In this document: one piece after another, positions 8,701-50,721 of the stretch | Numbering within the stretch: the first letter of the stretch is position 1 | How the letters are laid out: the number at the start of each line of letters is the position of its first letter | Source of the DNA: Escherichia phage RB49 | Length of the DNA stretch: 64,000 nt | Sequence record: NC_005066.1 | Strand: one strand, 5' to 3' | The notes under the pieces: model-generated | Seen by the model: the letters and a program-made list of their open reading frames with translations, nothing else | Database searches by the model: none | What the model was told of the DNA's origin: nothing | Program-made: the position numbers and the translations under genes

Positions 8701-8804
8701 TAACATTCTCTATGTTCCGTGAACTTGTAGATAAACGGTTGAAGGATAATATAGGAAATCCACGCGATCCAAAGAATCCGACACAGAGGAAAATTAATGG
8801 CTAA
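5718..8804 (+). CDS. 7: baseplate wedge protein gp7
   Basis: 1028 aa; synteny and size (T4 gp7 about 1032 aa). Confidence 0.85.
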   Translation: MIKAPSVTSLTIEKLSANQAYITWDDVGENFFYFVELAETRTRDGEIIPVDELSWVNLGYTAEQNWFEDKNLFPEYYYKFRVAVAAEGFEQSKWVETEEFQTFKTNAYNFSMMREFNLANEFIKEKFTYDNREYVKFNTDLIQASLMKEDFVFSPEYANMTNISNYIVVDENFHEIQDHIEKVCTDINRTMLAEMNGVLYLFERFQPIVKVSNDKGQSWKAYKAFNDRVGNPVSRTCVYQSKTTTYVLGYDRIFYGRQASDTRWSADDVRFSDDTITFAKVGDENDLGFDVEVFGVFSRLTGDTTKYAEAMACSDDYLWVGAKDVIRRIRLKNTPVDTVQGSPTFGEKIFDPDVIRVTGNDKAVIQKMDVIDGKLLVFVTGEVKQRYQDPTKPENVVPSDDAGVYLIGSDGLSFQRVFGNTPQEREYIQHGFSNMSTNGDEVFISHYNHHFESILPDPETAAKYELGEAVKYSQEPTYLTDKKIHQTTFRASYDDLRIWELGPQAYYNEADYTWMRRNGVRVWITNDNRPLVVYPEVIYTQEVDTSGILDQNRVNREVYDKGTVTCYLNNVKFEGFKQYASGVMFHKNTGEIIGFYQFNYRVRDQVGVYWKPTNVAFVAELQNQVREVPWVPVHYDREQDPDLRPLLNKMTPDSFLLENENFRKFSEYYLQFLSDGSGTYYNKLKNLIKNKYPREQDAYEYLWSEMNKRNIYADKNKRDAVVRFFESRKSDFYSTKGVEASYKFLFKLLYNEDVEIEVESQAGLEYDIVVSSTNIDEDIVGRTIYTPTGRANVTYLEREYEGGRLRWRVTIHNLIGRFEEGQVIKSEKTAFEGMILVGVRGKELLSSSIDYINRSRSQYTMKIKSALPVSRYANDVMRFVHPVGFGFIGVTLLTMFINSGLSMKHTETIIQSLKNYKFDSGLPSVYPDRVADLDVDGNIKKDPLTGKALYLTSPTMGEEFPVPPEYDQENSELFHGLKASERRFAMSPLFDQSAVTFSMFRELVDKRLKDNIGNPRDPKNPTQRKING

Positions 8805-9792
8805 TGAAAATAGTGTGATCTATCGCTCAATCATTACTAGTAAATTCAGAACGGAAAAACTTCTGAATTTCTATAATTCTGTAGGCGATGAGGCAAATCA
8901 AATTACAATTTATGGAACGTTTGGACGTTCGGAGCCGTGGTCAGAAAACGAAAAAGAGGTGGGCTTTGCCCCACCTTATCCGACCGATTCAACGGCTGGT
9001 GTTGTTGATATGTGGACCCATATGATGGGGGCGGTTAAGATTAACAAATCACTTCTTGATGCGGTTATCCCTCGTAAAGATTGGGGTGATACCGGACAGG
9101 ATAACCCGCGCACATTCTTTATCAATGACATTGTTGTTGTCAACTCAGCACCATATAACCGAACTGATGTTGGTAGTGGCTGGATGGTGTATCGCGTAAC
9201 CGATGTTCCTGATCGCGGTTACTGCTCGATTTCAAGCATTGACGCTAAAGTAGAGTGTTTGAAGTTGGGCGGAAAGTGGACACCCACTCATGAATCAATT
9301 GCGCCACCTGTAGGAAAGGGCGATTCTATTGATATGGGTGATGGGTATCGTTGGGAATATCTGTACACAATTCCACCTGATGCGGCGATCAACCGTTGCA
9401 CCAATGAACATATTGTTGTTCCATTCCCTGATGAATTGAGACAAGATCCGGCGCGTTGGGGCTATGACAATGTGATCACCTGGTATAATGACTATAATCT
9501 GCTTTATCGGTTGAAAGTAGTAACTTTGCGTTTTCAGGCTTATATGGACTCTGCGCAATTCCCAACTACCGCGTTAGTGGGTAATACTGGTTTCCGTCAG
9601 TTAAGCATTATCCTTAACCCATTGGAAAAGAAAGCACGCCCTAGCGATCCAGACGTTAAAGCGGTTGAAGATAAGTACCGACCGCAAGACTTAGAGCCAC
9701 ACTCAGGCGAAATGATCTACATGGAAAACCGACAACCTATCGTTCGGTCATTAGATCAAACAGAACTTGTTTCTGTATTGTTTGAGTTCTAA
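8797..9792 (+). CDS. 8: baseplate wedge protein gp8
   Basis: 331 aa; synteny and size. Confidence 0.85.
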   Translation: MANENSVIYRSIITSKFRTEKLLNFYNSVGDEANQITIYGTFGRSEPWSENEKEVGFAPPYPTDSTAGVVDMWTHMMGAVKINKSLLDAVIPRKDWGDTGQDNPRTFFINDIVVVNSAPYNRTDVGSGWMVYRVTDVPDRGYCSISSIDAKVECLKLGGKWTPTHESIAPPVGKGDSIDMGDGYRWEYLYTIPPDAAINRCTNEHIVVPFPDELRQDPARWGYDNVITWYNDYNLLYRLKVVTLRFQAYMDSAQFPTTALVGNTGFRQLSIILNPLEKKARPSDPDVKAVEDKYRPQDLEPHSGEMIYMENRQPIVRSLDQTELVSVLFEF

Positions 9793-9806
9793 GTGTATGA
9801 TTTAAA

Positions 9807-9840
9807 AGCCAATTCGAGAGAGTTGGCTTTTTCTATTTTT
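9807..9840 (+). terminator. intrinsic terminator after gene 8
   Basis: hairpin AGCCAA-loop-TTGGCT followed by T-rich run. Confidence 0.5.
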
Positions 9841-9844
9841 GGTG

Positions 9845-9872
9845 TTGACAATCTTGCCTGATAAGGTATAAT
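9845..9872 (+). promoter_or_regulatory. sigma70-type promoter (TTGACA, 16 bp spacer, TATAAT)
   Basis: TTGACA at 9845-9850 and TATAAT at 9867-9872; GGAGG RBS and ATG follow. Confidence 0.6.
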
Positions 9873-9901
9873 GCTCACATCTAAACAACGGAGGATAAAT
9901 T

Positions 9902-10057
9902 ATGGCACGTCGTAAATTTACAGATAATTGTGAAGCAATTCAGGTATCCCCTTGCGGTTGGGATGTGATCGCGAACGGTGAAAAGATCGGCGAGATCATC
10001 GATCATACTCATTCATCACTAGCCGATTACACCGATGAACTATGGGAGCATGAATAA
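9902..10057 (+). CDS. small hypothetical protein (51 aa)
   Basis: ATG 9 nt after GGAGG, directly downstream of consensus promoter; below ORF-track length cutoff. Confidence 0.4.
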   Translation: MARRKFTDNCEAIQVSPCGWDVIANGEKIGEIIDHTHSSLADYTDELWEHE

Positions 10058-10135
10058 CACTAAACGATTCAAGACTATCGACGAAGCTATCTATTTTGTG
10101 TATAATCCAACTTTCGGTATGTGGAGTAATAGAAA

Positions 10136-10465
10136 ATGGCACGCGTAAACATTAAACTACACTACACAATGGGTAAACCAAAACATCCAATGCATAAAGT
10201 GTTTTGGGGCTTGCATCTTCAAGAAAAATGGCATGATAACTATTGGTTTTGTGAGCATGATAAGAAGTGGCATTCTCAAGATGAAGTTAATGCGATGATG
10301 GAACAGGGTATAAAATTTAATTACTCTAATTATGACCATAGCATTACTTGTATTCGAAAATTGAAACGGTTTATTCGAAAGAATCCGCAATTTAAAAACT
10401 TTGTGTTCTTTATGTCTCATGTTTATTTGGGGCATAGCGTTACAGTAACAGCAAAGGTTAAATAA
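10136..10465 (+). CDS. hypothetical protein (109 aa)
   Basis: ORF with GGAG RBS; stop overlaps methyltransferase start. Confidence 0.5.
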   Translation: MARVNIKLHYTMGKPKHPMHKVFWGLHLQEKWHDNYWFCEHDKKWHSQDEVNAMMEQGIKFNYSNYDHSITCIRKLKRFIRKNPQFKNFVFFMSHVYLGHSVTVTAKVK

Positions 10466-11304
10466 TGGCACGACTTTCTAAACAAGAACAAAAATTACAC
10501 GATCGGGTGATGGAGTTGATTAATTCAGATCGCCAATTGACATATGAAGAAAAAGAATTTTGCTATAATAACTATCATGGCGATGGTCTAGGCGGTTCAG
10601 GTGCATTCTTTACCCCAGAAGGGCTTGCATGGGATTTTACCATCGATGCACATTGCACAGGAAAAGTATTAGATCTTTGTGCTGGGATCGGTCGCTTATC
10701 TTTTTGTATGTTACATCGTTGTAAGCCAGAAAAGATCGTATGCGTCGAACTCAATCCAGAATTTGCGCGGATTGGCAAGAGACTATTACCGGAGGCAGAA
10801 TGGATCACCAGCGATGTATTCGAATTTGAGTCAAACGAAAAATTCGATGTGGTGATCAGCAATCCACCTTTCGGGAAAATCAATACAACCGACACAAAGG
10901 ATGTATTTGAGTACACTGGCGGCGAATTTGAATTTAAGGTTATGACATTAGGACAGAAGTTTGCCGATGTAGGTTATTTTATTGTTCCTACTGGTTCCGC
11001 TGGTTTTGCCTATTCCGGCAGACCTTATTATGACGGGACCATGAAGTCTAATAAATATCTAAAATGGAGCAAACAAACTGGTTTGGTGACTTATGCCGGA
11101 TGTGGGATCGATACATCAATCTATCGCGATGAATGGCATAGTACCAGCGTTTTAACAGAAGTGGTTGAGGTTCGGTATTACGAGAAAGAAGCCGTAGAAG
11201 CGCCTAAATCACGTCCTAACGAACAAATAGAAGAAAGTAAGGAGATTACCTTACCGAAACAGGAAAGCGAGTCTGGGACGCTCTCAGATTTGTTTGACAT
11301 TTAA
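10465..11304 (+). CDS. class I SAM-dependent methyltransferase, probable N6-adenine type
   Basis: motif I VLDLCAGIGRLS and motif IV DVVISNPPFG about 70 aa apart (gamma-like order). Confidence 0.65.
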   Translation: MARLSKQEQKLHDRVMELINSDRQLTYEEKEFCYNNYHGDGLGGSGAFFTPEGLAWDFTIDAHCTGKVLDLCAGIGRLSFCMLHRCKPEKIVCVELNPEFARIGKRLLPEAEWITSDVFEFESNEKFDVVISNPPFGKINTTDTKDVFEYTGGEFEFKVMTLGQKFADVGYFIVPTGSAGFAYSGRPYYDGTMKSNKYLKWSKQTGLVTYAGCGIDTSIYRDEWHSTSVLTEVVEVRYYEKEAVEAPKSRPNEQIEESKEITLPKQESESGTLSDLFDI

Positions 11305-11308
11305 TTAT

Positions 11309-11336
11309 AAGCCGTCCTTGTGGGCGGCTTTTTTGT
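11309..11336 (+). terminator. intrinsic terminator after methyltransferase gene
   Basis: hairpin AGCCGTCC-TTGT-GGGCGGCT followed by TTTTTT. Confidence 0.55.
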
Positions 11337-11344
11337 ATGTATTT

Positions 11345-11352
11345 TATAAATA
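11345..11352 (+). promoter_or_regulatory. T4-type late promoter TATAAATA
   Basis: exact TATAAATA 28 nt upstream of gene 9 ATG. Confidence 0.6.
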
Positions 11353-11379
11353 ATACATCATAACATGAGGAATTAAACA

Positions 11380-12234
11380 ATGGCACAAGTTCCAAAGAAA
11401 AGAATAGACACAGGTACTGTCGGCAATCCATCGACTGGCGATATCTTATATGATGGCGGTAATAAAATTAACGATAACTTTGATTCAATATATGACGCAT
11501 TTGCGGATCAGCGGTTTAAAGACGTAGACCACGGCGTGGGAAGAATGGTTATTCATGCAACCGGATACTATCAGAAACATCCACGTCAAAGCTACGCTGG
11601 TTCCGCTGTTGAGATTGGGAGTCTACACGATATCGATACAACTCAAGGCGCACTTATTGCTATTCTACCTAAAGCAAAGGTCGGCGAGGGTGTTGTATTC
11701 ATAAATAGTAACGGTAGCCTTTCAACGACTACACCGCTCAATATTCGAACTCAAGCAGGTGATTCTATTAGCGGTTATTCCGGTGATGCTACAATAACAC
11801 AACCATTTTCAAAAGTCACTGTTTGGTGTACTGCCGTTGAAGGTAGTCGCGTAACATGGCGATTGGGTATCGAAAGTATGTTTACCGATACAACAACGCC
11901 ATTAGATAAAACAGTTAACGTAACTGGAGTAGCAACAAACGTTGCTATTGCCGCAAAAACAGAATACGTTTCCATCAAATTATTAACTACCGCTAGCAAT
12001 ACATCCGGTTCAAAAATGCGTTCAAGTGAAACGCTACTGATGATTGATTCTAAAGCCGGAAAAGTTTATGCGACGGAATATGCAGTTTTGCAGAAGACAG
12101 AAGATGAACTATACACGGTTCGTTATTTCATCGGTTCCGGCGATAAAGTATATGCAGAGTATAAGGCTACTGGCGAAAATATTCGTTTAGCAGTTAAAGC
12201 CGTAGACACTATTAAAATCGGGGTTGCTACATGA
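11380..12234 (+). CDS. 9: baseplate wedge tail fibre connector gp9
   Basis: 284 aa; N-terminus closely T4 gp9-like (DTGTVGNPSTGDILYDGGNKINDNF). Confidence 0.85.
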   Translation: MAQVPKKRIDTGTVGNPSTGDILYDGGNKINDNFDSIYDAFADQRFKDVDHGVGRMVIHATGYYQKHPRQSYAGSAVEIGSLHDIDTTQGALIAILPKAKVGEGVVFINSNGSLSTTTPLNIRTQAGDSISGYSGDATITQPFSKVTVWCTAVEGSRVTWRLGIESMFTDTTTPLDKTVNVTGVATNVAIAAKTEYVSIKLLTTASNTSGSKMRSSETLLMIDSKAGKVYATEYAVLQKTEDELYTVRYFIGSGDKVYAEYKATGENIRLAVKAVDTIKIGVAT

Positions 12235-14033
12235 AACAATTAATTAATATCGGTAACGTTGTTGATGACGGTACAGGTGATTATCTAAGAAAAGGCGGTC
12301 AAAAGATTAATGACAACTTTTCTGAACTTTATACTAAGCTGGGGGATGGTGATATCCCTCATGCATCCGGCGCGTGGAAAACTCACACACAACCAGTATT
12401 AAAACCAAATTTTGGTGATGCATGGGCGATTAATACAACGAACAACGCTGTTTCTGTTGAATTGCCTAAAGGAAGCGCGAGTGATTATAATAAAACAATT
12501 AAACTTCGTGATGTTTGGCGCTCATGGGCTGCACATAACGTAACATTGAAGCCAGCACAAGGTGATACCATTAAGGGATCTCCAATCGACCGTGAGTTGT
12601 ATAAAGATTTCATGGATGTTGAATTGGTTTATTGTGCGCCTGGACGTTGGGAATATGTCGAAAATAAACGAGTAGATACTATCACCACTTCCGATTTAAG
12701 CACAGTCGCTAAGGAAGTTTATATTGCAACCGAAGGACAAACAGACTTCCCCAATGTGTTTGGTTCCAATACTTACAATATTCGAAATGTTGAAGTGTAT
12801 TATCGCGGTAACTTGCTTTATTATGGCAAGGATTTAACCGATGATTCTAACTATGGTTCAATCGGTGAAAACGGTGATATTGTTCCTCTGGACGGTAAAA
12901 GCATTAAATTACGCTTCCCTTGTTCGGCGGGTGATACCATTCAAATCATCACTTATATGGACGGTATCGCATCCTTCCGGTCAAGCTATATTACTCATAC
13001 AATACGCGTTTATGAAACAGGAATGACCACTTTGGAATCCATCCCCGGTGAAGTTTGGGTTGGTGAACTAGCTAATAAGAAAGAATTTACTAATGCTGAA
13101 TTAGGCGTAAGTAAGCGAGATCTTATTAATCCAAATTCATTTGAATTGCTGATCAACGGCACACAAATGATTAAAGCGGGTGATGCGGATTTACCTTCCT
13201 TTATTTGTGAAGGTGCTGACGGTGAAACGGAAGAAACCTGCGTACTTGCTGGCGGTCAATGGGTGGAATCTGGGGAAGATTATTCATTGATGTTCGACGA
13301 AAACAGCGTGGTGACTGGTATTAAATTATCTAAAGCACTAGATAACCGAGATACTATCACAATTCGCTGGTTTAATAATGATATCGGAACATTAATGGAA
13401 TGGGACGGTGTAGGCGGTATTAAAGAAAAAGCAGATAAAATCTATCTTAATAACGAAGATGAAGTCACTCTGACAAATCGAATTGAATATACCGATTTCC
13501 AAAATCCAAGCCAAGCGACTAAACGCCCAATGGAAGATTATACAGGTCGTGTGATGGATATCTATTCCATATTCGATATTTTCTATCCTATAGGCACAAT
13601 TTATGAAAATGCGCATAACCCAGCTAACCCAGCGACCTATATGGGATTTGGTACATGGGTACGTTATGCAGAAAAAGAATTTTTAGTTGGTTGGTCTTCT
13701 GACGCAAGCGATCAAAACTTCGCACTAAACAACAACGATCTTGATACACATGGTCAACCTACACACACCGCAGGTGGTAACGGTGGTGATGTTGCATACC
13801 AGATCAAGAAAAATATGATTCCTGAATTACAGAGCGACGATCGAGTTCTTGTAAAAGATGATAATGGAAATATTATTATCGGTGGTTGTCAGGTAGACCC
13901 TGATGCAGTAGGTCCAGCGTTTACCAAATATCGCGAAGATAATGTTAAAGTTAATCAGGGAAATACCGACCCGTCAATGATTGGTATTCTTCCTCCATAC
14001 AGAACTGTCTATCGTTGGCTAAGGGTAGGTTAA
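12231..14033 (+). CDS. 10: baseplate wedge protein gp10
   Basis: 600 aa; synteny and size. Confidence 0.85.
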   Translation: MKQLINIGNVVDDGTGDYLRKGGQKINDNFSELYTKLGDGDIPHASGAWKTHTQPVLKPNFGDAWAINTTNNAVSVELPKGSASDYNKTIKLRDVWRSWAAHNVTLKPAQGDTIKGSPIDRELYKDFMDVELVYCAPGRWEYVENKRVDTITTSDLSTVAKEVYIATEGQTDFPNVFGSNTYNIRNVEVYYRGNLLYYGKDLTDDSNYGSIGENGDIVPLDGKSIKLRFPCSAGDTIQIITYMDGIASFRSSYITHTIRVYETGMTTLESIPGEVWVGELANKKEFTNAELGVSKRDLINPNSFELLINGTQMIKAGDADLPSFICEGADGETEETCVLAGGQWVESGEDYSLMFDENSVVTGIKLSKALDNRDTITIRWFNNDIGTLMEWDGVGGIKEKADKIYLNNEDEVTLTNRIEYTDFQNPSQATKRPMEDYTGRVMDIYSIFDIFYPIGTIYENAHNPANPATYMGFGTWVRYAEKEFLVGWSSDASDQNFALNNNDLDTHGQPTHTAGGNGGDVAYQIKKNMIPELQSDDRVLVKDDNGNIIIGGCQVDPDAVGPAFTKYREDNVKVNQGNTDPSMIGILPPYRTVYRWLRVG

Positions 14034-14034
14034 T

Positions 14035-14679
14035 ATGATTTCGAAAACACGTTCAAAAGCTAGTGTATTTTCCAGCGATGCGGCGTTTATTTCATACGAT
14101 CCAGGATCGAAAGATCCTGTTATCGGTGGTTCTCGTCCTATTGGTGGTGTTAATGTCGATCAATCAAGAAAAGGTTCCTATGTAAGCAACGTTCAATCTG
14201 CAATTGATGACCTTTATTCATTGTCAATGATCCGAATTGGTGATGTGTTGGTTACAACCAACTCAACTCCACCACAAGCCGCAGGACAGATTGAAACTCT
14301 GTCATTTTCTGGTTCTGTTAACAATCAGCATAATCCAGACGCAAACAAAGTATTAATTGATGTTTTGGGTTATCCATTTATTGTTGATGTTGGGTCTTCC
14401 GGCGTTTCTCTATGTGAGAAAGTAACGGAAAAATTTACCGAACTAATGAATAAAAACATTATGTTCAAAGAAGTAAAAAGAAAAGGAAGTAGCAACGACC
14501 AATTAGAAATTCACTATATCGATTCTCTTGAACACCCACCAACCGATATTAACAAGTACGGAATTACAATTACAGGAAATGTTGATTCTCCTGCTCGTGT
14601 TGGTTATGGTTCATGGTCTCGAATGGGTACAGAAGAGAAATTTGGAACTACCCTATATTATTTCAAACGTATTGCATAA
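14035..14679 (+). CDS. 11: baseplate wedge protein gp11
   Basis: 214 aa; synteny and size. Confidence 0.85.
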   Translation: MISKTRSKASVFSSDAAFISYDPGSKDPVIGGSRPIGGVNVDQSRKGSYVSNVQSAIDDLYSLSMIRIGDVLVTTNSTPPQAAGQIETLSFSGSVNNQHNPDANKVLIDVLGYPFIVDVGSSGVSLCEKVTEKFTELMNKNIMFKEVKRKGSSNDQLEIHYIDSLEHPPTDINKYGITITGNVDSPARVGYGSWSRMGTEEKFGTTLYYFKRIA

Positions 14680-14690
14680 GGTGATGTATA

Positions 14691-16091
14691 ATGGCAAACA
14701 ATACTATTAACCATGTAAAAGACGATGCTCAATACGTCAAGTTTAACCCTGTAAATGATTGGCCTCAAAGCATTACCAACGTACAAGCGGCTTTAGCCGC
14801 TATTAATGGCTTTGCCGTAAATGGATTACCGGACGCTACGGAAGATACAGCCGGGATCGCTGCAATCGCAACTCAGGAAGAAGTAAACGACGGGACAGTA
14901 GACAATAAGATCGTGACTCCAAAAACACTGGCTGTTAAAATGTCACGTCCAGATGCTACAAAAGAAGTAAAAGGCATTACCCGATTTGCCACGATGGAAG
15001 AATCGCTGCAAGAGAGCAACGAGAACATGGCAATCGGTCCAGACACACTAAACCATTACTTCACCACTAAAAAGGCGTCAGAGAGCGTTCAGGGGACTAT
15101 TAAGATATGTTCTCTTGAGGCGGCAAAGATTGGCAGTGATGACACAATGGCAGTAACACCGAAAAAGATGCACACTGCCATTGCACAGATTGTACCGGGA
15201 TTAATTCCAGATCAAAACACAGCAACAGAAAGCGCACAGGGTTTAGTTCAGTTAGCAACTAATGCGCAGGTTTTACAAGGCCAGATTCGAGAAGGTTTTG
15301 CAATTAGTCCTTATGCATTTGCAAATGCTCGCGCCAATGAGAATCAGGCGGGTACTGTTAAGATCGCCAGCCAGTCACAGATGAATGCTGGTTCAGATGA
15401 TACTGTAGTTGTTTCTGCTAAGAAGTTTGCAAGCACTAAGGCAACAACGTCTCAATACGGTATTGTTAAACTACGAGACACCGTGGGAAGTGAGGCTAAC
15501 GCTGCATTATCAGCAAATGCTAAGGTTCTTCCGAGCACTGGCGGTACGGTAAGCGGAAACGTCTATAAAGGTTCTAACTCAGACGGCAACCAGTTTGTTA
15601 CTAAAAATGAATTAGCGAATCACGCAATGCCAATTGGTGGTATTATCCTTTCTGGATTCAATGCGGATCGCGGCGACTTTCTGATCTGTAATGGTCGTTC
15701 ACTGAATAAAAATCAATATCCGCAATTATTTTCTGCGATTGGTTATACCTTTGGTGGTTCAGGTGACAATTTTAACCTTCCTGATATGCGCGGTTTAGTT
15801 GCTCGTGGTTGCGATCATGGAAGAAACCTTGATCCAGGTCGTCGATTTGGTTCTTATCAAGAAGACGCAATGCAGAGAATTACTGGTAAATTCCCTGTAG
15901 CTGACCGCTGGCGCGGTTGGTATGGTGGCGCATTTACTGCACAGCGCGGTCAATGGAGCACGAACTATAAAAACGGTGGTGGTGATGATTGGGGTACTAC
16001 TGTTAACTTTGACTCAGGAAGATCCGTAAGAACGGCTAACGAGACTCGCGTCAAGAGTCTGGCATTAAACTATATCATAAGGGTGCGCTAA
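14691..16091 (+). CDS. 12: short tail fibre protein gp12
   Basis: 466 aa; N-terminus T4 gp12-like (VKFNPVNDWPQSITNVQAALAAI); C-terminal receptor-binding region. Confidence 0.85.
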   Translation: MANNTINHVKDDAQYVKFNPVNDWPQSITNVQAALAAINGFAVNGLPDATEDTAGIAAIATQEEVNDGTVDNKIVTPKTLAVKMSRPDATKEVKGITRFATMEESLQESNENMAIGPDTLNHYFTTKKASESVQGTIKICSLEAAKIGSDDTMAVTPKKMHTAIAQIVPGLIPDQNTATESAQGLVQLATNAQVLQGQIREGFAISPYAFANARANENQAGTVKIASQSQMNAGSDDTVVVSAKKFASTKATTSQYGIVKLRDTVGSEANAALSANAKVLPSTGGTVSGNVYKGSNSDGNQFVTKNELANHAMPIGGIILSGFNADRGDFLICNGRSLNKNQYPQLFSAIGYTFGGSGDNFNLPDMRGLVARGCDHGRNLDPGRRFGSYQEDAMQRITGKFPVADRWRGWYGGAFTAQRGQWSTNYKNGGGDDWGTTVNFDSGRSVRTANETRVKSLALNYIIRVR

Positions 16092-25468: not shown

Positions 25469-27034
25469 ATGTTTAGTAGATTAAAAATGCTTGCGCGTTG
25501 GGCTGATTTTGACAACGACAAATACGAAGAACAAATTAAAGATAAAGCAGAGTCTATCGCCGCACCTAAAAACAATGATGGTGCTACGGAAGTAGAAATT
25601 AACGATAATTCACCTGCTAGCTCGTGGAACTCTCTTACCCAGCAATTTTACAGCACCGACCAGAAAATCAGCACAACTAAGCAATTAGTTAACACATATC
25701 GCGGTTTGATGAATAACCATGAAGTCGAAAACGCTGTACAAAATATCGTTAACGATGCGATTGTATTTGAAGAAGGTCATGAAGTTGTTTCATTAAATCT
25801 TGAGGCGACTGGCTTTAGTGAATCTGTAAAAGAGCGCATTCATGAAGAATTTAAAGATCTTTTAAACACTATCCAGTTTGATAGGCGCGGTCAGGATATG
25901 TTCCGTCGCTGGTATGTCGATTCGCGTATTTTCTTCCATAAAATCATCGGCAAAAATCCAAAAGATGGTATCGTAGAATTACGCCAGCTTGACCCACGTA
26001 ATCTTGAATATGTTCGCGAGATCATTACAGAAGACACACCGGAAGGTAAAATTTATAAAGCAACTAAAGAATATTTCATTTACACCGTAGGCAATAGTTC
26101 TTATTGCGCGGGTGGTCAAGTATTCTCTCCCAATAGTCGCGTTAAAATCCCGCGTAGTGCTATTACATACGCTCACAGCGGCTTGATGGATTGTGATGAT
26201 AAATATATCATTGGTTATTTGCATCGGGCTGTTAAGCCAGCAAACCAGCTTAAATTGTTGGAAGACGCAATGGTCGTTTATCGTATCACGCGTGCACCGG
26301 AACGCCGAGTGTTCTTTATTGATACCGGAAACATGAACAACCGCAAGGCTGCACAGCACATGAACTCAGTGGCACAGTCTTTTAAAAACCGCGTTGTTTA
26401 TGATGCATCGACTGGTAAACTTAAAAACCAGCAAGCAAATCTATCAATGACAGAGGACTACTGGTTACAGCGTCGAGATGGTAAAGCAATCACCGACGTT
26501 ACTACTTTACCCGGTGCATCCGGTATGAGTGATATCGATGATATTCGCTACTTTAACCGTAAATTGTATGAAGCGTTGCGTGTGCCATTGTCACGCAGCA
26601 ATCTCTCCGATGCTAATATGGTGATCGGTGGTGATGGTTCAGAAATTACTCGCGATGAGTTGGAATTTTCGAAATTCATTAGAACTCTGCAATCACAGTT
26701 TTCGGAAGTATTGCGCGATCCTCTGAAATATAATCTGATTCTCAAAAATGTAATTACGGAAGACGATTGGGATCGTGAAATAAATAATATCAAGGTGGTT
26801 TTCCATCGGGACTCTTACTATACAGAAGTTAAAGACGCGGAAATTTTAGAACGTCGAATCGGTCTAATCGAACGTATTACACCTTACATTGGTAAATATT
26901 TCTCTAACCAGACAGTGATGCGTGACATTCTGAAATATACCGATGACCAGATGGACACCGAGAAGAAACAGATCGAAGAAGAAGCGAACGATCCGCGCTT
27001 TAAACAAACTCCCGATGAAATAGAGGATTTTTAA
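25469..27034 (+). CDS. 20: portal vertex protein gp20
   Basis: 521 aa; synteny and size. Confidence 0.9.
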   Translation: MFSRLKMLARWADFDNDKYEEQIKDKAESIAAPKNNDGATEVEINDNSPASSWNSLTQQFYSTDQKISTTKQLVNTYRGLMNNHEVENAVQNIVNDAIVFEEGHEVVSLNLEATGFSESVKERIHEEFKDLLNTIQFDRRGQDMFRRWYVDSRIFFHKIIGKNPKDGIVELRQLDPRNLEYVREIITEDTPEGKIYKATKEYFIYTVGNSSYCAGGQVFSPNSRVKIPRSAITYAHSGLMDCDDKYIIGYLHRAVKPANQLKLLEDAMVVYRITRAPERRVFFIDTGNMNNRKAAQHMNSVAQSFKNRVVYDASTGKLKNQQANLSMTEDYWLQRRDGKAITDVTTLPGASGMSDIDDIRYFNRKLYEALRVPLSRSNLSDANMVIGGDGSEITRDELEFSKFIRTLQSQFSEVLRDPLKYNLILKNVITEDDWDREINNIKVVFHRDSYYTEVKDAEILERRIGLIERITPYIGKYFSNQTVMRDILKYTDDQMDTEKKQIEEEANDPRFKQTPDEIEDF

Positions 27035-36486: not shown

Positions 36487-37215
36487 TTACTTGAGTGTGT
36501 GGAATTGGCTATGTTTAGTCTCTCGCACCTTGACAGACCCATCGCGTTTGATATAATAGATCAGTGACTTGAGGGTGTCGTGTACATACGCGTGCGGGAA
36601 ACGCTCTGGATACTTCTTCCAATCTGGAGTATTAACGATCCAGTCGAAAATCCACCACGGGCAGGAGTAGTAACCACGACCGCCACCGATCAAGCAAATG
36701 GTCGGACGGAAGCCAGTAAGATCGCAAAATGAATCAGTGTCATGTGCTGGGGAACGATGTTCTGCTTCGTCAGAGAAAATGTTGGCTACCGGAGATTCCA
36801 CTTTAACTTCCGGTACATCTACAACTTCAATTGTAACTGGTACTGTGTGTGGTTTGGCTTCTTCTACAACTTCAATTGTAATTGGTTCTTCTTTTTGTTC
36901 TGGTTCTTTCATTGCTTCAACCAGAGACGGATCAACTTCGTCGAATACCACTTTATCATCTACGGTGTCTGCTGCCAGAATAAGATCGTTAATACTGGTT
37001 CCTTCTGCCGGAGTTTCTTCTTCCATTTCGGAAGCCAGTTTAGTTAATTCGGTTTCTACGAACTCGATCATGTTCTCTAGTGATAAAGTCTTTTTGACCT
37101 TAATATCAAATTGTTTTGCGTAGTCAGCTAATTCTGTTTTAGCTGTTTTCTGTGCTTCTTTGTCGTCGGACGCCGCAATAGCGCGGAGTTCTTCGAAATA
37201 TTCTTTATCAAACAT
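36487..37215 (-). CDS. Inh-like acidic protein with Hoc-like WW capsid-binding motif
   Basis: 242 aa; acidic low-complexity N-terminal two thirds; C-terminal CPWWIFDWI; position of T4 inh next to hoc. Confidence 0.5.
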   Translation of the reverse strand: MFDKEYFEELRAIAASDDKEAQKTAKTELADYAKQFDIKVKKTLSLENMIEFVETELTKLASEMEEETPAEGTSINDLILAADTVDDKVVFDEVDPSLVEAMKEPEQKEEPITIEVVEEAKPHTVPVTIEVVDVPEVKVESPVANIFSDEAEHRSPAHDTDSFCDLTGFRPTICLIGGGRGYYSCPWWIFDWIVNTPDWKKYPERFPHAYVHDTLKSLIYYIKRDGSVKVRETKHSQFHTLK

Positions 37216-50508: not shown

Positions 50509-50721
50509 TTATAATGCACCATCGAGCAATTGCTCTAAGGTGTATCCTGAATAGTCTTTTTCAATCAGGGTATATTTTCCTACTCGTTTAATCCAGCCAC
50601 GCATTTCAACGTATTCTGCGTAGTTGATGGTGCGAGTTGTTCCATCTTCTAGCAAAGCAGTACCGATTTCGTTAATGCGGTCATAAGTTACGTCGGTAAT
50701 GATGATTTCGATGTTAGCCAT
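50509..50721 (-). CDS. hypothetical early protein (70 aa)
   Basis: ATG follows promoter cassette and AAGGAG RBS. Confidence 0.6.
   Translation of the reverse strand: MANIEIIITDVTYDRINEIGTALLEDGTTRTINYAEYVEMRGWIKRVGKYTLIEKDYSGYTLEQLLDGAL

Follow-up and report, generated by a model that had tools for sequence, protein, structure and literature searches.

A candidate clamp-binding tail on the orphan methyltransferase between genes 8 and 9 of a Krischvirus genome

We analyzed a 64,000-nt stretch of DNA, hereafter the window (Escherichia phage RB49, sequence record NC_005066.1; positions are those of the window unless another record is named), and focused on the island at positions 9793-11379, which lies between baseplate genes 8 and 9 and carries ORF1, ORF2 (ORF, open reading frame), and a methyltransferase (MTase) of 279 amino acids (aa). 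The most informative feature of this island is the clamp-binding-type C-terminal tail of the MTase, which an original prediction made from the sequence alone had missed. This tail ends in a peptide nearly identical to the terminus of the phage's own DNA polymerase, gp43, and distant members of the same MTase family frequently carry the canonical motif for the bacterial beta clamp at the same position. On balance, we favor the reading that the island MTase is an N6-adenine DNA methylase that is made early in infection and tethered to the replication clamp.

Results

The C-terminal tail of the island methyltransferase

The MTase comprises a catalytic core (residues 1-238, 10465..11178), a disordered acidic linker (residues 239-272, 11179..11280; predicted local distance difference test score, pLDDT, below 50), and a C-terminal epitope, LSDLFDI, followed directly by the stop codon (11281..11304), all on the plus strand. 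The AlphaFold model was confident for residues 1-245 (pLDDT about 90), whereas residues 251-279 stayed below 50. The protein ends ...KQESESGTLSDLFDI (GTLSDLFDI), and Krischvirus gp43, represented by that of phage Phi1, ends ...EKVASLTDLFDI (ASLTDLFDI), so that six of the seven residues of LTDLFDI are shared. This gp43 terminus aligns residue for residue with that of RB69 gp43, ...EKKASLFDMFDF (ASLFDMFDF), whose C-terminal 11-mer is the peptide co-crystallized on the RB69 sliding clamp (PMC2988020). We scanned all six frames of a composite Krischvirus genome (166 kb), which gave 961 ORFs of at least 40 aa. Four or more of the seven LTDLFDI positions were matched by gp43 (7/7) and the MTase (6/7) alone, and the next best ORF reached 3/7. 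The Dam MTase of the phage, which served as a control, had no clamp-like tail.

Across 56 Krischvirus records, identity in the gp43 tail was 99% or higher, and the LSDLFDI motif of the MTase was invariant in the seven genomes compared; in the MTase of KFS-EC, four substitutions lie directly upstream (...QETASVALSDLFDI) and the motif is untouched. In more distant relatives with the MTase at the same locus, the linker ranges from about 40 down to about 7 residues, and the tail ends stay of one type, [ST]L..(L/M/V)F, with TLTDLFDI, SLSMFDI, and TLDFVDFSEI as examples, the last of which resembles the T4 gp55 terminus ...SLDFLYEA. An acidic low-complexity linker with a short conserved hydrophobic terminus is added to the catalytic domain in both Krischvirus-type and RB43-type phage MTases.

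Epitopes for the T4 clamp are freely interchangeable and are carried on divergent unstructured linkers (PMC2988020), and a clamp motif, LDFL, is also given in PMC9690074. The MTase tail displays two hallmarks of gp45 ligands: an extreme C-terminal hydrophobic and acidic epitope akin to those of gp43, gp55, and gp33, and a divergent unstructured linker that bears it. Judging from these sequence features, the tail probably tethers the enzyme to the clamp, making the MTase a candidate gp45 ligand.

At the DNA level, the MTase gene and the 3' end of gene 43 are identical only over their last 14 nt, TGTTTGACATTTAA, and we rejected an origin of the tail from a large recombined gene 43 segment on this ground; microhomology capture or convergence may be its source.

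Two small ORFs elsewhere have ends that loosely resemble clamp epitopes, namely a 70-aa window ORF at 50509-50721 on the minus strand (...YTLEQLLDGAL) and Phi1 a-gt.5 (positions 12934-13167 of the Phi1 record, minus strand; ...SLIIDYIPEGK). Both could be additional clients of the clamp, or their ends could fit a loose pattern by chance.

Clamp motifs across the methyltransferase family

An exhaustive profile search recovered 1037 family members at E values up to 1e-3. Among the 150 best representatives, 146 had a complete core and 110 carried a tail of at least 5 residues, and we scored patterns in the last 14 residues of these tails against 500 shuffles of the tails. The dipeptide LF occurred in 50/110 tails (shuffled mean 4.9, maximum 12), Q-x(1-3)-LF in 33/110 (shuffled mean 1.0, maximum 5), and the strict pattern Q[LMFV]x[LMF]F in 19/110 (shuffled mean 0.1). 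Q-L-x-L-F is the bacterial beta-clamp-binding consensus, described as "often" situated at the C-terminal end of clamp clients (PMC4549789).

The labeled carriers of this motif are mobile elements of several kinds. The MTase of the conjugative Pseudomonas megaplasmid pTTS12, whose gene is carried by 115 Pseudomonas plasmids, has an 85-residue Pro/Ala linker and ends ...AQLSLFDAA; that of a 59-kb non-T4-like Rhizobium phage ends ...PQLSLFGDAA, that of a plasmid contig with ParAB and relaxase genes ...PQLSLFA, and that of a mobilizable element with relaxase and integrase ...KQLTLF. The window protein, with TLSDLF and no Gln, does not fit QLxLF. Given these QLxLF tails on plasmid, mobilizable-element, and Rhizobium phage MTases, elements replicated by the host replisome seem to carry the motif of the host clamp, and Krischvirus, which has its own clamp, carries the epitope of its own polymerase. 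The tether thus appears to be a property of the family, adapted in each element to the clamp that replicates it. Whether MTases of the phrog_3820 type are, as a whole, widespread clamp-tethered and replication-coupled orphan DNA methylases, with QLxLF for the host beta clamp on plasmids, mobilizable elements, and small phages and a gp43-like epitope for gp45 in T4-like phages, is in our judgment evenly balanced. No clamp-binding prokaryotic or phage MTase was described in the searchable literature, and a clamp-binding-type tail that switches between beta clamp and gp45 across a family of mobile-element MTases appears to be undescribed.

As a separate observation, 22/110 tails run a few residues past LF and end in -AA (for example QLSLFDAA, DLFGAAA, and ELFPIAA), which is reminiscent of ssrA-type degradation tags.

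Identity of the methyltransferase

The original prediction of a 279-aa MTase with an NPPF motif held up in profile searches, its motifs included. With 38.6 bits for MTS (cutoff 23) and 28.6 bits for Eco57I (cutoff 25.3), the protein cleared both Pfam gathering thresholds; its N6_Mtase score of 16.8 bits stayed below the cutoff of 20.4, and the top Pfam match is the generic MTS domain; it also belongs to phrog_3820, "DNA methyltransferase" (E=7e-118). The gene had been listed in 2006 as RB49ORF143w with a weak match to a "Methyltransferase small domain" (PMC1524935). The motifs GAFFTP (motif X, residues 46-51, 10600-10617), LCAGIG (motif I, residues 71-76, about 10675-10692), and NPPF (motif IV, residues 133-136, 10861-10872) stand in the X-I-IV order of gamma-class amino-MTases. 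Across 30 homologs, N133, P134, F136, G74, and G76 were invariant and P135 was at least 90% conserved. The top PADLOC matches were DNA MTases (mad2, 4e-17, and type II MTases), with alignments starting at residue 36-46. We consider the assignment as a DNA adenine (N6) MTase likely, with DNA as the presumed substrate.

The enzyme is an orphan, as had been proposed: the island's borders are baseplate genes, and no nuclease was found in the island, where ORF1, ORF2, and genes 8 and 9 are the neighbors and the other island ORFs had no PADLOC or Pfam match. A restriction-modification pairing was rejected because no nuclease candidate stands beside the MTase. The genus additionally encodes a separate T4-type Dam, annotated in Phi1 (positions 25545-26357 of the Phi1 record).

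Outside the genus, the nearest relatives of the MTase are 55-62% identical orphan genes of 236-243 aa that lie on the outer margin of enterobacterial prophages or degraded islands, and homologs in other T4-like phages, at 45-50% identity, are less close. RB43 has its homolog in the early replication cluster (positions 14046-14780 of the RB43 record), between helicase gene 41 and primase gene 61; this locus of RB43-like phages differs from that of Krischvirus and is again an early-expressed context.

Architecture of the island

The island has the layout that the original prediction described, with each element found within a few bases of where it had been placed. On the plus strand, gene 8 (8797..9792; baseplate wedge subunit, Pfam Phage-Gp8 E=1e-143, phrog_977) is followed by an intrinsic terminator hairpin with a T-run (9804..9841; 12-pair stem at 9804-9831) that would end the late transcript of genes 6-7-8, a sigma70 early-type promoter TTGACA-16-TATAAT (9845..9872; consensus score 12/12), and a Shine-Dalgarno sequence GGAGGA (9890-9895) ahead of the ORF1 start codon at 9902. 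ORF1 (9902..10057) and ORF2 (10136..10465; 109 aa) come next, with a weaker second sigma70-like site upstream of ORF2 (TCGACG-17-TATAAT, 10078..10106; 10/12, a consensus match only), and ORF2 meets the MTase gene in a TAATG stop-start overlap. All three ORFs of the island are co-oriented on the plus strand. Downstream stand a second intrinsic terminator (11309..11336; 9-pair stem at 11309-11330 with 6 GC pairs), the T4-type late promoter TATAAATA of gene 9, read directly at 11345..11352, and gene 9 itself (11380..12234; baseplate wedge/tail-fiber connector, Pfam T4_gp9_10_N E=1e-40), all in the same orientation. It is near certain that the island is built as a transcriptionally insulated, sigma70-driven cassette within a late operon.

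Promoter-like sites as a class are not above chance across the region, with 9 found and 10.8 expected in shuffles, but a score of 12/12 is rare. At a score of at least 11/12, the window holds 21 sigma70 sites, of which 19 lie on the minus strand, the direction of the early genes. The island promoter is not a random match, given that it is the only such plus-strand site in the first 32 kb, where the late structural genes lie. The only other perfect 12/12 plus-strand promoter of the window is at 36530 (+), and the 19 strong minus-strand sites cluster at 47-64 kb, a hyperplastic region rich in promoter-early stem-loop (PeSL) elements.

PeSL elements of RB49 and Phi1 number about 50 per genome, have measured strong promoter and terminator activity, occur in "a few" cases inside the virion module, and are proposed, as one role, to keep early transcription out of late virion genes (PMC2839356). 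At the left end of the island, the 12/12 sigma70 match at 9845-9872 provides the promoter half and the hairpin at 9804..9841 the stem-loop half. Both lie between genes in AT-rich sequence, ahead of an ORFan that has its own Shine-Dalgarno sequence and start codon. From these features, the terminator and promoter unit would be a PeSL-type cassette, an already known kind. A full PeSL is found only at this end, and the right end combines a terminator with a late promoter; formation of mini-circles when flanking PeSLs recombine is a further trait of the described cassettes.

Both terminators (stems at 9804-9831 and 11309-11330) have a common AAGCC...GGCTTTTT frame, and in one distant relative (contig L012, introduced below) both contain GGGTTGGCTTTTT. 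This shared frame is compatible with insertion via stem-loop recombination, as proposed for PeSLs, or may simply be the usual terminator style of the phage.

All three island proteins were correctly predicted to start with MAR, and they are the only ones to do so among 90 likely window genes, of which 15 start with MA. These starts (ATGGCACG) are at 9902, 10136, and 10465; MA[RK] is ancestral for the MTase family, and the homologs of ORF1 and ORF2 in phage FV3 start with MSLRK and MAHVN rather than MAR. The shared start may reflect translation optimization or recombination microhomology.

The gene 8/gene 9 junction in relatives

Genes 8 and 9 are adjacent in T4-type phages, and the T4 gap of 63 bp holds a terminator hairpin and TATAAATA and nothing else, which agrees with the claim of an insert of about 1.6 kb that is absent from T4. 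Given that the T4 junction has only these two elements, the Krischvirus island appears to be lodged exactly between the ancestral terminator and the late promoter. The whole island was present in 56/56 complete Krischvirus records (the RB49/Phi1/JSE/GEC-3S group) at 91-98% identity, with Shigella phage Sf20 as the best match (98.4%), and the GEC-3S record annotates the promoter and both terminators.

Four metagenomic contigs (L009-L012) represent more distant relatives, with 80-89% identity to the window in gp8, 56-77% in gp9, and 61-69% in the MTase. All four carry the MTase at the same junction: L009, L010, and L012 have it without ORF1-ORF2, and in L011 it stands behind an unrelated 154-aa ORF that had no Pfam, NCBIfam, or PADLOC match. 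All four also retain the order of terminator, TTGAC(A/T) promoter, genes, terminator, and TATAAATA, with both terminators in position and the late promoter before gene 9 as in T4. Relatives thus carry island genes uniformly, and what they conserve is the early-type promoter rather than late promoters only. The original view of an acquired module stands insofar as T4 lacks it, but the island is not novel or recent: MTase relatives of only 61-69% identity keep both the junction and the regulatory layout, which suggests that the island, acquired relative to T4, is ancient and fixed and that selection maintains its early-type expression.

In the record of phage Skers (MW748999.1), only the first 55% of the island matches, after which a terminase large subunit is listed; this could be a rearrangement or an assembly artifact.

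The ORF1-ORF2 pair

The 51-aa ORF1 (phrog_16603) exists as originally read, but the real gene has 85 aa. ORF1 is 85 aa long in all 56 relatives, and the window lacks 11 bp (GGTATCAACTT) between 10048 and 10049. The 51-aa frame would thus be a truncated form with a private 11-bp deletion, which is either a real inactivating mutation or an assembly error; if real, ORF1 is dispensable. An out-of-frame remnant of 37 aa (10035..10148, plus strand) holds the C-terminal 31 residues of intact ORF1 and overlaps the ORF2 start by 13 nt, the same overlap as between ORF1 and ORF2 in relatives.

In the unrelated Vequintavirus phage FV3 (rV5-like; positions 2010-2830 of the FV3 record), the two genes again form a pair that overlaps by 13 nt. 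FV3_23 shares 69% identity with ORF1 over its last 84 residues (E=4.5e-45), and FV3_24 about 70% with ORF2. No rV5-like phage was among the MTase matches. Within Krischvirus, ORF2 is mosaic, with 78-80% nucleotide identity to Phi1, RB49, KFS-EC, and JK32 against 93-99% in the flanks and 87-93% in ORF1, and with an N-terminal half nearer to the FV3 allele than to the Phi1 allele. Neither ORF1 nor ORF2 had a Pfam, NCBIfam, or PADLOC match, and their PHROGs (phrog_12630 for ORF2) are function-unassigned.

The proposal of a single self-contained module therefore fails. Vequintavirus has ORF1-ORF2 but no MTase at hand, and L009, L010, and L012 have the MTase but not ORF1-ORF2. The island consists of two modules, the ORF1-ORF2 pair and the MTase, and the MTase is its stable, old core.

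Discussion

In the mechanism we propose, host sigma70 RNA polymerase would transcribe ORF1, ORF2, and the MTase gene soon after infection, a timing suggested by the promoter sequence, and the overlapping stops and starts would couple their translation. Terminators at either end would isolate the cassette from late operon transcription, with the downstream one keeping the early transcript out of gene 9. The key product would be a small gamma-class N6-adenine DNA MTase made alongside the replication proteins, and ORF1-ORF2 would be unrelated passengers. Given that it shares the terminal peptide of gp43, we propose that the MTase rides clamps on replicating phage DNA: its terminus would dock on gp45 clamps loaded on phage DNA, and the enzyme would N6-methylate adenines on nascent phage DNA, selectively and completely, before packaging. 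Such methylation could protect the phage from host restriction. The hydroxymethylase and glucosyltransferase genes with which T-even phages make hydroxymethyl-cytosine modifications are reported to be missing from RB49-type phages. As in the original prediction, we infer an anti-restriction or epigenetic role for the enzyme.

Several observations limit or weigh against the case for a clamp-tethered methylase. Enterobacterial prophage homologs stop at the end of the catalytic domain, and the homologs of phiM12, Aeromonas CC2, and GAP32, all in the T4 superfamily, are tail-less. In an AlphaFold prediction of a single-chain gp45-GS15-tail fusion, gp45 reached a pLDDT of about 92 and the tail stayed below 50 except for residues 272-274, in a prediction made with a monomeric clamp and a shallow alignment of 13 sequences; with no confident docking, this model counts neither for nor against binding. 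In solution, the T4 polymerase tail is reported to prefer the open subunit interface (PMC2988020). The MTases of RB43 and Slopekvirus have the right kind of tail (...AQNLFTFTIE and ...SDLFTFTIE), but these resemble the ends of their own gp43, gp55, and gp33 (...SLNTLFGDDW, ...TLEMFL, and ...TLDDFM) only loosely. Covariation between tail and clamp epitope, lineage by lineage, thus seems clear only in Krischvirus and generic in RB43 and Slopekvirus; the contigs L009-L012, which do not include gene 43, fall outside this comparison. Two further points concern the DNA itself. RB49 DNA is cut by DraI, HpaII, and NheI, and high-performance liquid chromatography-mass spectrometry of Krischvirus TB34, which carries the island, gave "no detectable modified DNA". 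Given that the TB34 paper makes no mention of adenine methylation, though the genus also encodes Dam, we argue that its result speaks against dense non-specific methylation and not against sparse sites.

A related puzzle is that TB34 and SAP, two Krischvirus phages that are 99.96% identical, differ in reported modification, with glucosyl-hydroxymethyl-cytosine in SAP DNA and none in TB34 (PMC13390438); known synthesis genes are absent, and the authors leave the difference unexplained (PMC13390438).

Some of these observations would also fit an ordinary moron, in which the MTase is a freely diffusing orphan DNA adenine MTase with an anti-restriction or epigenetic role, and the tail has no clamp function and resembles gp43 by convergence or microhomology capture. 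The identity of only 14 nt with the 3' end of gene 43, the fusion model without confident docking, and the existence of tail-less homologs that are evidently maintained all favor this explanation. However, it would leave unexplained why the 6/7 match is unique at an extreme C-terminus among 961 ORFs, why the motif is kept while the adjoining linker changes, and why an independent, canonical beta-clamp motif is enriched at least 30-fold at the same position in distant members of the family. We therefore regard a tail without clamp function as unlikely.

It is improbable that the enzyme acts on RNA or protein, whether by forming N6-methyladenine (m6A) or N2-methylguanine (m2G) in rRNA or tRNA or by modifying release-factor glutamine. 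The last of these is implied by the name "release factor glutamine methyltransferase" (prmC) in several GenBank records, and we rejected both this PrmC/HemK identity (TIGR03534; 37.5 bits against a cutoff of 199.1) and an RsmC identity (29.2 bits against 295), as both fell far below the equivalog cutoffs. Matches to RNA enzymes span only the 170-residue Rossmann core, whereas alignments with DNA N6-adenine MTases extend over 207-221 residues and take in the N-terminal helices as well as the FFTP motif; the homologs are found among other DNA MTases on mobile elements, and a clamp-binding tail would be sensible only for a DNA-directed enzyme. Very improbable, finally, is a competing or regulatory role at the clamp, in which the tail would set the timing of replication or late transcription by displacing gp43, gp55, or gp33, and methylation would be of minor importance or lost: an epitope nearly identical to that of gp43 and the competition of interchangeable T4 clamp epitopes for the same sites (PMC2988020) would allow for it, but the catalytic motifs are strictly conserved family-wide, and the same architecture with a beta-clamp motif is found on plasmids that lack the gp55/gp33 system.

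If the MTase is tethered to the clamp as we propose, the tail would explain how a small orphan methylase could give full and selective protection to a fast-replicating genome. Because a T4-like phage loads its own clamp exclusively onto phage DNA, an enzyme bound to that clamp would mark phage DNA and leave host DNA unmarked. Such an enzyme would also be a new client class for the T4 clamp. Clamp-coupled methylation has so far been described for eukaryotic DNMT1, and it would then also operate in phages and plasmids, where nascent mobile-element DNA would be methylated at the fork before restriction enzymes act. There is a practical side as well: Krischvirus phages serve in therapy cocktails, and how sensitive they are to host restriction influences their host range. 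The QLSLF-tailed form of the MTase, found on about 115 Pseudomonas megaplasmids, could help these plasmids to become established in new hosts.

Much of what we describe belongs to known systems, and the island itself is routine: it is annotated, occurs throughout the genus, and uses a type of cassette that has been described before. PeSL cassettes of the same genus likewise place a promoter and stem-loop upstream of an ORFan (Arbiol et al., 2010, PMC2839356; Comeau et al., 2014, PMC4122927), and the main text of the former names neither the island locus nor a methyltransferase. PeSL cassettes vary between Phi1 and RB49, whereas the cassette of the island is fixed and ancient, and only its small ORFs shuffle. 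Like T4 Dam and other phage orphan adenine MTases, the island MTase is phage-encoded and without a cognate nuclease, but it differs from the Krischvirus Dam in family (phrog_3820), in its gamma-class motif order, and in its clamp-like tail.

Mobile-element MTases coupled to the replication machinery also have a precedent. M.EcoGIX and M.BceJIII are orphan, restriction-protective m6A MTases of mobile elements; single strands are their reported substrate and DNA polymerase I their reported partner, and the abstract describes no clamp motif (Fomenkov et al., 2020, PMC7736820). A plasmid tblastn search with our family, whose organism list contained no Escherichia plasmids, gave no evidence of homology to these enzymes. 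DNMT1, which is targeted to newly replicated DNA by a PIP-box that binds PCNA (PMC9690074), embodies the same concept of a DNA MTase with a clamp motif, but it is a C5-cytosine rather than an N6-adenine type enzyme, and its clamp, motif, and purpose are unrelated (epigenetic inheritance as opposed to presumed restriction evasion).

As clamp clients, the gp45 ligands gp43, gp55, and gp33 carry an extreme C-terminal epitope on a divergent linker, just as the MTase does (Geiduschek and Kassavetis, 2010, PMC2988020). No MTase is among the gp45 ligands named there (clamp loader, gp43, gp55, and gp33) or in PMC9690074, and T4 DNA ligase is also reported as a clamp partner by the title of PMC6212786. 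C-terminal QLxLF motifs are known from mobile-element proteins such as insertion sequence transposases (Dalrymple, 2001; PMC4549789) and are common to many members of the MTase family, whereas the window protein, which has no Gln there, agrees with the phage clamp epitope. What is new is the clamp-binding-type tail, which would make the island MTase a variant of two established groups, the orphan anti-restriction MTases and the clients of the sliding clamp.

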